Source of the DNA: a virus
Lineage: Duplodnaviria; Caudoviricetes
Direction: 5' to 3' (one strand)
IMG/VR virus record: IMGVR_UViG_2786546475_000015
Coordinates: 64,001 to 128,000 of that record
Length of the DNA: 64,000 nucleotides
Shown: one piece after another, positions 35,759-40,989 of the stretch
Layout: each line of letters begins with the position of its first letter
Numbering within the stretch: position 1 is the first letter of the stretch
Translations under genes and position numbers: made by a program
The notes under the pieces: generated by a model
Databases searched by the model: none
Seen by the model: the letters and a program-made list of their open reading frames with translations, nothing else
What the model was told of the DNA's origin: nothing

Positions 35759-35773
35759 TAAAATTGTTTCTTA

Positions 35774-35810
35774 GAAAGCCTAGTGTGATAAAATTGCACT
35801 AGGCTTTTTT
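35774..35810 (+). terminator. intrinsic terminator
   Basis: AAAGCCTAGTG..CACTAGGCTTTTTT. Confidence 0.7.
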
Positions 35811-36110: not shown

Positions 36111-36335
36111 ATGAACGTAGACAAACAAAAATTAATTGAGTTAATGAACGTTATGACTGAAAAGGTTAGAGCGTATGATAGTAGTTTAGGTATTACTATC
36201 CAAACATCACCAAGGGGTAATTTAGATTTCCATATCGTATACCCTAATGGGATGATATATCAAACATTCGAAATGGATTTTTCCGACGAAGAATACCCTA
36301 TGTGGTATGTAGTAAGGCATAAATATGAAAAATAA
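36111..36335 (+). CDS. hypothetical protein
   Basis: ATG after AGGT. Confidence 0.5.
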   Translation: MNVDKQKLIELMNVMTEKVRAYDSSLGITIQTSPRGNLDFHIVYPNGMIYQTFEMDFSDEEYPMWYVVRHKYEK

Positions 36336-36825
36336 ACACCAAATGATGATGAATATCGCCCATGAAATGGCGAGTCAGAGTAAATGTATAAGTAAGAATG
36401 TAGGCGCGGTTATCGCTAAAGATGGTCGTATTATCAGTACAGGCTATAATGGTACACCAAGCGGTTTACCCAATTGTTGTGATGTAGCCGAAGAAATTGG
36501 TTTTGGTCGTTTATATAGTGATCCGAATACATTAACAGTATCAACGCAAATGACTGATAGACCAAAACATAGTGCTTGGTCAGATCAAAACGAAATTCAT
36601 GCGGAGCAAAACGCGATTATATTTGCCGCTAAACACGGTGTAGCCGTACAAGGTTGTGTTATGTATGTCACACATTCACCATGCCCTACATGTTGTAAAA
36701 TAATCGCACAGAGTGGTATACAGACGGTCATTTATGATGAATTATATGATCGTAGTCCTAGTAATTGGGATAAAATCTTAAAAGACAAACAAATAGCGGT
36801 GTTCTCGCTACAAGAGGTTGTTTAA
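36325..36825 (+). CDS. cd: dCMP deaminase
   Basis: VGAVI..DGRIISTGYNG, HAEQNA, SPC..C. Confidence 0.95.
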   Translation: MKNKHQMMMNIAHEMASQSKCISKNVGAVIAKDGRIISTGYNGTPSGLPNCCDVAEEIGFGRLYSDPNTLTVSTQMTDRPKHSAWSDQNEIHAEQNAIIFAAKHGVAVQGCVMYVTHSPCPTCCKIIAQSGIQTVIYDELYDRSPSNWDKILKDKQIAVFSLQEVV

Positions 36826-38498
36826 TGCAGTTAACAAATGAACAGTTAATGGAAATTATACGCTATGCGTATGTAGAAAAAATGAGTAGTAGAAAAATCC
36901 AAGCGGTTACTGGTATTAGTAAAAGTGCTGTTAACCGTTTTCTTTCTAGAAAGACTTACAAAGAGTTTTGGGAAACCTACGACGAAAAACCACATGCGGG
37001 TGTTAATATTGATCCACCAGAACAAAGGCGTTCTACCCTACCAAAAGGTCGATACGTATTCACTTCGGCACAGAATAATAGTTATGTACATTTAGGGTTC
37101 TTGAACAGTCTTAAACATTTCTTAAAACAAAAAGATGCTGAACTAATTGTAGGCACTAATCTATACAATAAGAATGGATATCAGAACTTAGGTAAAGATC
37201 CATCAATTCAAGAAGATGAACGAGTATGGTTTGATCCTCATATCAAAGATTATATTAAAGACGAACAAAGCCAAGTAGCCGATAATCTATTGTGGTTAGG
37301 CGAATTGAACATGTCACCAACTAAAGTAAATCCGTTTAGTGGATTCTACAATTATACTAAACTTGAGAGTGGTATTATCCCACATAATAAAGTAAATTTA
37401 GAATCATTACCAGTACATAAGAAAGATCCAGCAAAATTCTTATACACTACTGGTAGTATTACAAGACCAAACTTTATTCAAAAAATAGCTGGTCAAAAAG
37501 CGGAATGGCATCATATTATTGGCGCACTTTACGTTGAAGTCGATGAAGATGGTGATTGGTTCGCACGTCAGTTACAAGCTGAATCAAGCACAGGTAATTT
37601 TTATGATTTAGAATATTACTATACCCCGAATGGTATAGAAAATCATATCGGAAAAAGCGTTGAAGCTATTAATTGGGGTGATTTACATTTCGAGAAGATT
37701 GATAAACAAGTAGCAGAAAACGCTTTTGGTGTTAAAGTACATAATAACCCTATGATGACTACTTTCAGTAAAATCGAAAATAATGGTAATATGCTGGATA
37801 CGTTAAGACCACGTTATCAATTTTGTCATGATACCGCCGATTTCACAACACGAAATCATCACAACATTAAAGATCCACATTTCAGATTCGAAATGTTTGC
37901 TAAGAATTATGACAGTGTACGCAACTCATTAACTGAATGCAGTAATGGTCTTAATGCTATGTGTCGGGATTTTTCTGAAACCGTTGTTGTTCAGAGTAAT
38001 CATGACGTAGCGTTGGAACGTTGGTTGAAGTCAGCCGATTATAGATTAGATCCACCAAACGCTGTATTCTTTTTAGAACGTCAATTAGCGGCGTACAAAG
38101 CGATAGAATCTGGTGATACCGATTACAATATTTTTGGTGACACGATGACAACGTTAACGCCACAACTAAAAGACCAAAAAATTACATTCTTAGGTACAGA
38201 TGAATCATTTAGATTATTTGACGAACATACTGGTATAGAATGTGGTTATCATGGTGATTTAGGTATTAACGGTTCGCGTGGTACGGCTAATGCCTATACT
38301 AAGATTGGTATTCGTGTTAATATTGGTCATAGCCATAGTGCTAAGATTAAAGACGGTGTTTATCAAGCGGGTGTAAGTGGTTTACTTGATATGGGATATA
38401 ACAAAGGTGCTTCAAGTTGGAGTCATAGCCATATCATCACATACAGAAATGGTAAACGTTGTATTGTCACAATGAAGAACGGTAAATGGAGAGCTTAA
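36825..38498 (+). CDS. T5 A1-like nuclease (metallophosphoesterase fold) with N-terminal HTH
   Basis: TSAQNN, YNKNGYQN, AGQKAE.H, WGDLH, HD..DF..RNHH, SNHD, G.NGSRG, GHSH, LDMGYN.GASSW, matching T5 A1 as recalled. Confidence 0.8.
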   Translation: MQLTNEQLMEIIRYAYVEKMSSRKIQAVTGISKSAVNRFLSRKTYKEFWETYDEKPHAGVNIDPPEQRRSTLPKGRYVFTSAQNNSYVHLGFLNSLKHFLKQKDAELIVGTNLYNKNGYQNLGKDPSIQEDERVWFDPHIKDYIKDEQSQVADNLLWLGELNMSPTKVNPFSGFYNYTKLESGIIPHNKVNLESLPVHKKDPAKFLYTTGSITRPNFIQKIAGQKAEWHHIIGALYVEVDEDGDWFARQLQAESSTGNFYDLEYYYTPNGIENHIGKSVEAINWGDLHFEKIDKQVAENAFGVKVHNNPMMTTFSKIENNGNMLDTLRPRYQFCHDTADFTTRNHHNIKDPHFRFEMFAKNYDSVRNSLTECSNGLNAMCRDFSETVVVQSNHDVALERWLKSADYRLDPPNAVFFLERQLAAYKAIESGDTDYNIFGDTMTTLTPQLKDQKITFLGTDESFRLFDEHTGIECGYHGDLGINGSRGTANAYTKIGIRVNIGHSHSAKIKDGVYQAGVSGLLDMGYNKGASSWSHSHIITYRNGKRCIVTMKNGKWRA

Positions 38499-39157
38499 AT
38501 TACGAGGTAATACCAGTTACACGTGAACATTGCAAGCATTTTATATTGAACATCCATTACGCCAAAAGATGGTGTTCGATATCTTATGCATTCGGACTAT
38601 TTAAGGATAAAGAAATGGTGGGAGTCGTGACATACGGCACACCACCTAGTTCGACATTAAGAATTGGTATTGCTGGAAAAGAAAACGAAAAATATGTATT
38701 AGAATTAAATAGACTAGTATTGCTGAATAACCACAAGAATGAAGCGAGTATGTTAGTTGGTAGAAGTTTAAAGATGTTGCCTAAACCATCTATCGTAATA
38801 TCATATTCCGATACAAGTATGAACCATCATGGTTATGTTTATCAAGCTTGTAATTTTACTTATCATGGGTTATCAGCAAAACGTAGTGATTGGAACGTTA
38901 AAAATTCTAATAAACACAATCATACACTTACCGATGAATTTAGAGGTTTAAAAAATCGTACTGAATTGGCAAGGGAAAGGTATAAAGACGATTTTTCTTA
39001 CAAACCAAGACCAAGAAAGCATCGGTACATATACATAACAGGCTCTAAGAGTGCGAGAAAACGATTAAGAGCGGATATTAAGTATAAACAGTATGATTAC
39101 CCTAAAGGCGATAATAAACGCTATGAGGTTAAACTTAGTAACCCATTGGATATATAA
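38486..39157 (+). CDS. Mom-like DNA (adenine) modification protein, GNAT-like fold
   Basis: HY...GLF..GV.TYG.P, LELNRL, SYSD..HHG.VYQA.NF.Y.G, K.RY.Y. Confidence 0.75.
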   Translation: MESLNYEVIPVTREHCKHFILNIHYAKRWCSISYAFGLFKDKEMVGVVTYGTPPSSTLRIGIAGKENEKYVLELNRLVLLNNHKNEASMLVGRSLKMLPKPSIVISYSDTSMNHHGYVYQACNFTYHGLSAKRSDWNVKNSNKHNHTLTDEFRGLKNRTELARERYKDDFSYKPRPRKHRYIYITGSKSARKRLRADIKYKQYDYPKGDNKRYEVKLSNPLDI

Positions 39158-39900
39158 TGCAAAAGAAATTTAATAACGAAGAAGAATTGGCGGCGTATTT
39201 TCAAAACTATCTCGAAAGTAAAGGATTTGATTGTTATCCAGAGGTTGTATTTGATATATTTAGCGGTCGCCCCGATATAGTCGCAGTAAAAAATAACAAG
39301 ATTTACGTGTTCGAATGTAAAATGAACTTCGGATTGAACGTAGTAACACAAACGTTTAGATGGTTTAATAGGTATAAGCCTAGTTATGGGTTTCCAGATT
39401 ATATTTATGCGGTAACACCATACAAAAAATCAGCTAGTCGAAGAAATGAATTACTCGATTCGGTAATGAAACAAAACGGTATCGGTCATATCATGGTAGG
39501 CGATCCAAGAGTCGGACGCGCTAAAATGTTTGACGGTAGTACTCATTTTTACGAAAAGGATATACATTCAGTATTAGATGCAAAACCCCAACGTAAAGGT
39601 CAAGAGTATGGTAAAGTTCTTATTGAACAACTATACGATGACATGAAAGACGCTAACGCGGGTACTACGGGTACTGAAATAATGACACCCTTTAAGCGGA
39701 CTATGAATCGTGTCAAAGAAATTATGCAAGATGGTGTTGCACGTACACCAAAGGATATGCTACCATTGATAGAGAAAATAGGTGGACACCATTACAGTAG
39801 TAATAGTTCATTTTATTCACAAGTAAGAAAATTATACCACTTAGCAGATTTGAAAGTGGTTCAAAAGGACGGAAAAATACACTATGAACGAAGAACTTAA
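39157..39900 (+). CDS. PD-(D/E)XK endonuclease-like protein
   Basis: E.EL..YL...G..YPEV..RPDIVA..FECK. Confidence 0.7.
   Translation: MQKKFNNEEELAAYFQNYLESKGFDCYPEVVFDIFSGRPDIVAVKNNKIYVFECKMNFGLNVVTQTFRWFNRYKPSYGFPDYIYAVTPYKKSASRRNELLDSVMKQNGIGHIMVGDPRVGRAKMFDGSTHFYEKDIHSVLDAKPQRKGQEYGKVLIEQLYDDMKDANAGTTGTEIMTPFKRTMNRVKEIMQDGVARTPKDMLPLIEKIGGHHYSSNSSFYSQVRKLYHLADLKVVQKDGKIHYERRT
39399..39884 (+). CDS. hypothetical protein, degenerate P-loop-like (ORF spans 39884-40399)
   Basis: PRQMGTTT and IISDEID resemble Walker A/B; see corrected entry. Confidence 0.05.
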
Positions 39901-40401: not shown

Positions 40402-40623
40402 ATGGAAGAATATGTAAATAAGCGTATTAAATTTATTCATAGCGGTATCAGTGATCACATCACTGGTACTGTATTAGAATATATACCTTATAAGAGTAAA
40501 GGATCGTTTATCATTGACGTAGAATCGGTTAGTGAATGCGATTTAGATCCAGACGGTCGTATTCGTGTGGGTAAACCGTGTCGTTTTTATAATGTATCCG
40601 ATTACGAAATCGAAGTGTTATAA
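40402..40623 (+). CDS. hypothetical protein
   Basis: AGGT RBS. Confidence 0.55.
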   Translation: MEEYVNKRIKFIHSGISDHITGTVLEYIPYKSKGSFIIDVESVSECDLDPDGRIRVGKPCRFYNVSDYEIEVL

Positions 40624-40626
40624 ATA
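40619..40626 (+). promoter_or_regulatory. T4-type late promoter
   Basis: TATAAATA just upstream of 40640. Confidence 0.75.
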
Positions 40627-40639
40627 ATTTCGGGGTCTT

Positions 40640-40924
40640 ATGAAAACATTTAATCAATTAATTCAAGAACGTGACATGATGGGATGGTTTTCTATCCCAA
40701 AAATGGTTAGAGATAAATTAGAGTCTTTAGGGTATAGTCAAAAGAGCGTCCAACGTAATGTTAAGTACACTATCGAGGATGATTGGGGTGACATGTATGT
40801 TAAAGTCGAAAATAAAAACTCTATCCCAAGTAAAGAAATCGAACAATACGCGAATACAAATAGTAACGTTATGCTAGATAAAGATTATCCAGTAAATGGT
40901 TTTACATTAATTATTCGAATTTAG
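40640..40924 (+). CDS. putative internal head protein
   Basis: MKTFNQLIQE, compare T4 IPIII MKTYQEFIAE; late promoter. Confidence 0.7.
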   Translation: MKTFNQLIQERDMMGWFSIPKMVRDKLESLGYSQKSVQRNVKYTIEDDWGDMYVKVENKNSIPSKEIEQYANTNSNVMLDKDYPVNGFTLIIRI

Positions 40925-40926
40925 TT

Positions 40927-40989
40927 AAAAAGCCCTTGCATCGTCGAGGGCTTTTTGCTATCCTGTATCTGTAACGTCGATTAAAGGAG
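40927..40989 (+). promoter_or_regulatory. PeSL-like cassette, copy 4
   Basis: AAAAAGCCCTTG..CGAGGGCTTTTT; TTGCAT-17-TATCCT; AAGGAG. Confidence 0.75.

Follow-up and report, generated by a model that had tools for sequence, protein, structure and literature searches.

In a phage genome of the IMG/VR database, three open reading frames (ORFs) that lie directly after cd, the dCMP deaminase gene, were analyzed. They code for a protein of the A1 family of phage T5 (ORF1), a protein of the Mom family of phage Mu (ORF2) and a nuclease of the PD-(D/E)XK superfamily (ORF3). The source is a complete virus record of 165,977 bp with direct terminal repeats (IMGVR_UViG_2786546475_000015), and the stretch under analysis, called the window below, covers its bases 64001-128000 (64,000 nucleotides). 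A preliminary description of this DNA had proposed that the phage marks its own DNA with Mom and destroys unmodified host or competitor DNA with the two nucleases. We found that all three families are already known, and that their combination is unusual but not conserved.

ORF1 matched phrog_1745, annotated as 'DNA transfer protein', with an E-value of 2.9e-179, and was aligned to T5 A1 with 39.5% identity over 512 amino acids (residues 74-556; E 1.7e-107). The metallophosphoesterase motif of ORF1 is composed of D286xH288, D336/D339, N392-H393-D394, H476 and H502xH504. All ten of these metal-site residues were identical to those of T5 A1 and invariant across 27 homologues. A helix-turn-helix (HTH) segment occupies about residues 1-55 at the N-terminus. 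The AlphaFold model, with a pLDDT (predicted local distance difference test) score of 84, predicted a helical HTH-type segment at the N-terminus and a phosphoesterase domain. A Foldseek search with this model returned, at modest E-values, the PolD DP1 proofreading exonuclease (E 7.6e-4), Vps29-type phosphoesterases and Mre11. Homology, metal motifs and nuclease-type fold together identified ORF1 as a member of the T5 A1 family. The T5-specific trait of pre-early, second-step transfer was not found for ORF1, which concerns its role and not its family membership; homologues of A2 and Dmp were absent from the genome (tblastn E>2). The A1 of T5 is both required and sufficient for the breakdown of host DNA, and the phage's own DNA is unmodified (bioRxiv 10.64898/2026.04.02.716235).

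ORF2 scored 132.2 bits against Pfam PF25680 (cut-off 27.1; E 2.5e-38) and matched Mu Mom (PDB 8BV8) with an E-value of 2.6e-10. The chain in 8BV8 is the S124A variant minus ten N-terminal residues, and its residue numbers were obtained by subtracting 9 from the native ones; the alanine of S124A falls at chain position 115, as expected. The alignment spans the region of the HTH-like insertion, which Mom activity requires, up to the conserved YPK end. Six of the seven active-site residues of Mu Mom were retained in ORF2: H58, Y59, R111, S124, D149 and Y159 of Mu correspond to H24, Y25, R76, S88, D109 and Y119, all invariant across 22 homologues. The seventh, R151, is matched by Ser111 in a gap-free part of the alignment flanked by the conserved D109 and Y119, and this position varies across the marine Mom subfamily. 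According to Silva et al., R111 and S124 of Mu Mom are essential and conserved; R151 is essential in Mu and was not stated to be so family-wide. Judged by its sequence, ORF2 belongs to the Mom family. In phage Mu, Mom acts on double-stranded DNA once it has been replicated and loads adenine N6 with glycine taken from Gly-tRNA(Gly) (PMC13219725), and ORF2 is presumed to be a Gly-tRNA-dependent adenine N6 modifier as well. The genome carries a single Mom gene and 24 tRNA genes, including tRNA-Gly(UCC) and tRNA-Gly(GCC), which we regard as a supportive point only, compatible with 6-NcmdA production by ORF2.

The C-terminal extension of ORF2, 16 residues ending in LDI, was found only in ORF2 and in its closest homologue, P0138 (75% identical). 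Similar tails occur in the same genome, in gp43 (TLGI), gp55 (GLDI) and the N6/N4 methyltransferase (NLGI). Tripeptide ends of this type were present in 7 of the 293 ORFs of the genome, and A1 and ORF3 lack them. Six ORFs end in L-(G/D)-I (Table 1), in keeping with a common clamp-docking tail. Sharing this type of tail with gp43 and gp55 suggests that the LDI end of Mom may be a clamp-docking or tethering motif. As a separate observation, phrog_3339 (536 positions, annotated as 'homing endonuclease') aligned with the Mom domain through its profile positions 369-489 (E 3.5e-5), which suggests that some other phages encode fusions of an endonuclease with Mom.

In ORF3, residues E8, P39-D40, E53-C-K55 and Q65 were invariant across 16 homologues. 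The Pfam NERD family was matched with 21.4 bits, just below its cut-off of 22.1, and weak matches to Hjc and PDDEXK_9 were obtained too; the homologue P0003 has a precomputed match to PF08378. The structural model (pLDDT 79) predicted a restriction-endonuclease-like alpha-beta-beta-beta-alpha-beta core that carries the E...PD...ExK...Q residues. Comparison of residues 7-138 by VIA-align gave Z scores of 8.4-10.2, XisH included, with 10.2 for 3dnx, 9.8 for PaqCI, 9.4 for 1y88 (AF1548) and 8.6 for NucS. Foldseek matched 3dnx, 1y88, PaqCI and NucS, and the modeled C-terminal winged helix gave a Z score of about 7. By motif and fold, ORF3 is a nuclease of the PD-(D/E)XK superfamily and looks active. 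The identities given to all three ORFs in the preliminary description therefore held.

The family of ORF3 is small: 16 proteins in a set of 5.8 billion, plus SPO1 gp1.5 and homologues in Vibrio phages. It ranges over SPO1-like Bacillus phages, a few Vibrio phages, and the chromosomes of Halomonas, Salinicola, Kushneria and Vibrio, and its winged-helix domain carries the motifs MTPFKRT and GGHHYSS. The bacterial genes (loci L205-L212) adjoin a TopB-type topoisomerase, RdgC, DUF3577 and DUF2726. Such content is typical of integrative conjugative elements (ICEs), and the bacterial setting appears to be ICE-like. No named or tested function was found among the family members recovered. Neither ORF3 alone nor the 16-sequence alignment detected related loci in IMG/VR; for the scans of metagenomes and genomes, a narrower alignment (A4) was used instead of the 16-sequence one.

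The trio lies in the middle of nine tightly packed ORFs between two terminators (Table 1), and would be co-transcribed with the six other small genes. The preliminary description had reported three overlapping or coupled ORFs directly after cd, and its coordinates and junctions were all borne out. The A1 ORF begins at the cd stop codon in a TAATG, A1 and Mom overlap by 13 nt (ATGGAGAGCTTAA), and Mom and ORF3 are joined by another TAATG; further on, ORF3 and ORF4 overlap by 17 nt. By crude longest-ORF calls, 142 of 267 adjacent same-strand ORF pairs in the genome overlap. Since about half of such pairs do so, the overlaps within the trio carry little weight, and its overlap coupling is no more than expected by chance. 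The late-type motif TATAAATA was absent from the plus strand between 33613 and 40619. Because this interval is free of the motif, the nine-gene unit is probably early or middle.

The ESM Atlas model of ORF4 resembles a single RecA-like or helicase domain, which we take as a lead only; the protein has a degenerate Walker-A-like QMGTTT without the lysine and a Walker-B-like IIISDE. A conserved 166-amino-acid ORF found downstream of ORF3 homologues was considered as a counterpart of ORF4 and was rejected, the two being unrelated. PADLOC matched none of the four proteins ORF1-ORF4, and NCBIfam gave sub-threshold matches only.

Table 1. Features of the nine-gene unit and of related loci (window positions unless another record is named; aa, amino acids).
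Feature	Position	Strand	Remarks
Intrinsic terminator hairpin	35773..35809	+	17-bp stem and T run; strong; ends upstream unit
Two small ORFs, 88 and 80 aa	35816..36335	+	No family match; first in unit
cd, dCMP deaminase	36325..36825	+	48% identity to T4 Cd
A1-family ORF1, 557 aa	36825..38498	+	N-terminal helix-turn-helix and metallophosphoesterase nuclease domain
Mom-family GNAT ORF2, 223 aa	38486..39157	+	16-aa C-terminal extension, end ...NPLDI
ORF3, 247 aa	39157..39900	+	PD-(D/E)XK (NERD-like) domain 7-138, winged-helix domain 172-247
ORF4, 171 aa	39884..40399	+	No family match
Two small ORFs	40402..40924	+	Second preceded by TATAAATA late-type motif at 40619-40626
Terminator hairpin and T run	40928..40957	+	Closes nine-gene unit
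gp55	own genome, 9457-9966		Ends in L-(G/D)-I
608-aa protein	own genome, 10673-12499		Ends in L-(G/D)-I
N6/N4 methyltransferase	own genome, 14826-15557		Ends in L-(G/D)-I
gp43	own genome, 20923-23493		Ends in L-(G/D)-I
89-aa protein	own genome, 97277-97546		Ends in L-(G/D)-I
Mom	own genome, 102486-103157		Ends in L-(G/D)-I
Vibrio phage 501E54-1 (L177)	record 111306-114766		
Vibrio phage 424E50-1 (L178)	record 104422-106220		

Conservation of the arrangement was analyzed around each member of the trio. The A1 set consisted of 80 IMG/VR loci with A1 homologues of 39-53% identity and flanks of up to 10 kb. Neither Mom nor ORF3 was found by tblastn within about 10 kb of A1 at any of them. A profile search of the whole records placed Mom above the Pfam cut-off in 2 of the 80, at 15 to >100 kb from A1, and Mom was missing from all five A1 genomes that are near-complete, among them that of Pseudomonas phage pf16. 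Around close homologues of Mom, A1 or ORF3 was likewise found at none of 80 loci (about 10 kb); A1 was present anywhere in 1 of the 28 longer Mom records, >125 kb from Mom, and the neighbours of Mom elsewhere were highly variable. Genes of the ORF3 family had neither A1 nor Mom nearby (0/29 loci). A hidden Markov model (HMM) of ORF3, run on the genes around Mom or A1 at the 160 loci, revealed no distant relatives, and a loose PD..ExK pattern was no commoner beside Mom than elsewhere. Five phage genomes with the ORF3 family were tested: three, SPO1 among them, lacked Mom, and the genomes of two Vibrio phages with an ORF3 homologue had a Mom-family gene at another site.

The A1 and Mom families are thus almost never linked in the loci and genomes surveyed, which agrees with the remark in the preliminary description that their pairing is unusual. 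The same description had offered conservation of the neighbourhood as a check on its proposal, and there the outcome went the other way, as the adjacency of A1 and Mom was not kept. Co-inheritance of modifier and nuclease across genomes was not observed either; Mom and ORF3 appear together in the nearest relative only, as inferred below. Separately, Vibrio phage 1.187.O (L173, record 1501-2064) carries a Mom-family gene (E 4.5e-35) with one in-frame TGA and an ORF3 homologue about 9 kb from it; A1 was not found in this partial-genome record.

Since related phages do not keep the trio together, its members look like three separate accessory genes, and functional coupling is without support from the comparison. 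We favour, as moderately probable, the explanation that three independent accessory genes share one transcription unit, having been collected in a variable early-gene region downstream of cd. The A1-family protein would then be a metal-dependent DNase like T5 A1 that drives breakdown of the host chromosome, and the products could feed the neighbouring nucleotide-salvage enzymes (Cd, thymidylate synthase and ribonucleotide reductase). Mom would move glycine from Gly-tRNA(Gly) to the adenine N6 in double-stranded DNA, and the resulting 6-NcmdA-type bases would block host restriction. Its L-D-I tail probably tethers it to the gp45 clamp, by which freshly replicated phage DNA would be modified. 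ORF3 would act as a nuclease, one of a small family found in phages and in ICE-like islands. None of these steps needs the three proteins to act on each other. We found no literature on Mom-like genes in T4-like phages or on phage nucleases paired with hypermodification; Mom-like genes themselves are already known, being annotated in T4-like cyanophages.

Several observations weigh against such independence. For Mom and for ORF3, the best homologue (75% and 76% identical, respectively) lies in each case on a single Logan contig of 7581 bp, and by this identical figure alone the two genes are probably kept together in the nearest relative. In Vibrio phage 501E54-1, A1 is followed by an HNH-AP2 homing endonuclease, a 55-amino-acid ORF and a divergent Mom-like gene (51 bits) about 1 kb downstream of A1, and an ORF3 homologue lies 16 kb away. 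Directly upstream of A1 in one IMG/VR contig lies a Mom-like GNAT gene with a sub-threshold score. In addition, a phage with an A1-type DNase must spare its own DNA, and the means by which T5 does so is unsettled (bioRxiv 10.64898/2026.04.02.716235).

The contig evidence is also what would be expected if Mom and ORF3 formed a restriction-modification- or addiction-like cassette, a modifier with its cognate PD-(D/E)XK nuclease, that was inserted beside an unrelated A1. The best A1 homologue is only 62% identical and lies on a different Logan contig of 26.9 kb, the TAATG junction is shared by Mom and ORF3, and both Mom proteins, that of the window and P0138, carry the ...LDI extension. However, an ORF3 homologue was present at 0 of 80 Mom loci by both tblastn and HMM, and Mom is not adjacent to the ORF3 homologues of SPO1-like phages, Vibrio phages and ICE-like islands. 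It is also by the size figure alone that the 7581-bp contig is taken to be shared. We consider a cassette of this kind unlikely; it is somewhat better supported than the self/non-self system of the preliminary description.

The sister of 501E54-1, phage 424E50-1, has A1 and neither insert. The Mom of the window and the Mom-like protein of 501E54-1 are 27% identical across 89 residues only, and therefore the two juxtapositions with A1 arose independently. The Mom-like gene of 501E54-1 had no close (>=60% identity) or full-length match in other cultured phage records. An 'endonuclease subunit' annotated beside A1 in this phage was examined as a relative of ORF3 and rejected, because it is the HNH-AP2 homing endonuclease. 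This homing endonuclease may have carried the modifier into the position after A1.

The preliminary description had placed the locus in a T4-like phage, which the rest of the genome confirmed. Homologues with 30-57% identity to T4 proteins were found for gp43, gp41, gp61, UvsX, gp45, gp46, gp47, gp55, gp32, gp59, RNase H, ligase, gp49, rIIA/B, NrdA, Cd, PseT, RnlA and DexA. The replication, recombination and structural core is T4-like by these similarities, and the phage is a marine, T4-like phage of the cytosine-DNA type; megablast of the region against phage records gave no matches. The description had also held that the T4 strategy based on hydroxymethylcytosine (hmC), DenA and DenB is absent. 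This was right in large part: gp42, gp56, a-gt, b-gt, Alc and DenB had no tblastn match at E<=0.01 in the genome, nor had Ndd, Arn and T4 Dam. It failed for DenA, as a DenA-like ORF is present with 36% identity to T4 DenA across 98 amino acids (E 1.6e-10). This endonuclease II-like ORF is located at G000:C1:39967-40353 of the same genome, about 24 kb ahead of the window start, and coexists there with the absence of detectable gp42, gp56, Alc and DenB. The genome has only one gene of the thymidylate-synthase family and two adenine/N4 methyltransferases, a D12 adenine methyltransferase and the N6/N4 methyltransferase.

The absence of the hmC toolkit is consistent with a self/non-self system, in which Mom-marked virion DNA arrives and the early A1-like and/or ORF3 nucleases destroy unmarked DNA of the host or of competitors, an arrangement that we regard as quite unlikely. 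The model is coherent in itself; clamp-tethered Mom would go on to mark the new phage DNA, and the whole would functionally replace T4 hmC, DenA/DenB and Alc. Nor do we see more than a slight chance that a Mom mark placed by means of a clamp-binding tail allows an indiscriminate A1-type DNase and/or the PD-(D/E)XK nuclease to be turned against host or competitor DNA. The trio does lie in one transcription unit, the clamp-type tail would confine marking to replicating phage DNA, a second, independent juxtaposition of A1 and a Mom-like gene exists in 501E54-1, and the way in which A1 phages protect their DNA is a standing question (bioRxiv 10.64898/2026.04.02.716235).

These points are opposed by the lack of conserved linkage, both in the 80 + 80 loci and genome-wide, and by T5 itself, whose A1 works though T5 DNA is unmodified (bioRxiv 10.64898/2026.04.02.716235). 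Mom acts after replication on any double-stranded DNA, and therefore a co-expressed Mom would mark host DNA too. The phage also has the two other adenine/N4 methyltransferases. Proximity of A1 and Mom in other genomes was not robustly above chance: a rough calculation, from which the window was left out since it had prompted the test, gave P values between about 0.02 and 0.5, according to the accessory-gene clustering that was assumed.

Homologues of A1 are common well beyond Demerecviridae, with 1134 phage records, 422 IMG/VR stretches and at least 683 metagenomic proteins. In other genomes A1 usually lies amid genes of replication and nucleotide metabolism. Recurrent neighbours are a ClpP-like protein, topoisomerase, ribonucleotide reductase, a RuvC-like protein, ligase, helicases, primase, the beta clamp and a MazZ-like pyrophosphatase. 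The presence of topoisomerase, helicase, primase, clamp and ligase in this company suits the idea that the A1-like protein is an exonuclease of replication or recombination, or a transcription regulator using its HTH segment, which does not degrade host DNA, so that the trio shares timing only. The best structural matches, the PolD DP1 proofreading exonuclease and Mre11-type phosphoesterases, point in the same direction, as do the binding of RNA polymerase by T5 A1 (bioRxiv 10.64898/2026.04.02.716235) and the fact that gp46/gp47 and DexA are already in the phage. We nevertheless judge this highly unlikely: the identity to T5 A1 extends over 512 amino acids with every metal-site residue kept, and DNA degradation is the activity of T5 A1 demonstrated in vivo.

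Two further observations concern the surroundings of A1. An N-terminal domain of dATP/dGTP diphosphohydrolase (PF18909; MazZ-like, E 4e-31) is encoded one to three ORFs after A1 at nine IMG/VR loci (L045, L056, L058, L059, L061, L063, L067, L069 and L083; representative L045:11455-11823). A Z-genome cluster was considered for these neighbours and was not evident, as there was no PurZ among them and the 333-amino-acid neighbour is a DNA ligase. In a jumbo phage contig of IMG/VR (347,232 bp; L214-L217, 233765-236306), A1 lies in an open frame of 666 amino acids, with three extra A1 N-terminal HTH segments just upstream or at its start. The same contig also has Mom, >125 kb from A1.

The locus as it stands is composed of known gene families in an unusual, non-conserved combination, best read as three independent accessory genes. 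How a T5-type A1 destroys the host chromosome yet spares phage DNA is an unresolved question (bioRxiv 10.64898/2026.04.02.716235), and a phage whose A1 gene shares a transcription unit with that of a DNA hypermodifying enzyme would be a convenient place to test protection by modification. If such protection were true here, it would be an adenine-based counterpart of T4 hmC and would explain concretely, for the first time, how a phage with A1 keeps its own genome intact.

When compared with known systems, ORF1 is about equal in length to T5 A1 and has a PolD DP1/Mre11-like fold, as the T5 authors state for A1. It differs in that its N-terminal 70 or so residues form a different HTH-type segment, and in its location, which is an internal operon instead of the first-step-transfer region; two-step DNA transfer is not expected for a T4-like phage such as this one. 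Mu mom is a late gene, whereas the gene of ORF2 has no late promoter nearby, and the 16-residue C-terminal LDI extension of ORF2 is lacking in Mu Mom and most marine homologues. The ORF3 family is separate from NERD and other restriction-endonuclease-like nucleases, being small and having a distinctive C-terminal winged-helix domain. With the hmC system of T4, the proposed self/non-self system would share its logic, own DNA being marked and unmarked DNA destroyed, in a phage with a T4-like core. In contrast to T4, gp42, gp56, a-gt, b-gt, alc, denB and ndd were undetected here, and only a DenA-like gene is present. Furthermore, the hmC mark of T4 is made at the level of the nucleotide pool, whereas Mom acts after replication and would have to be targeted for phage DNA alone to be marked.

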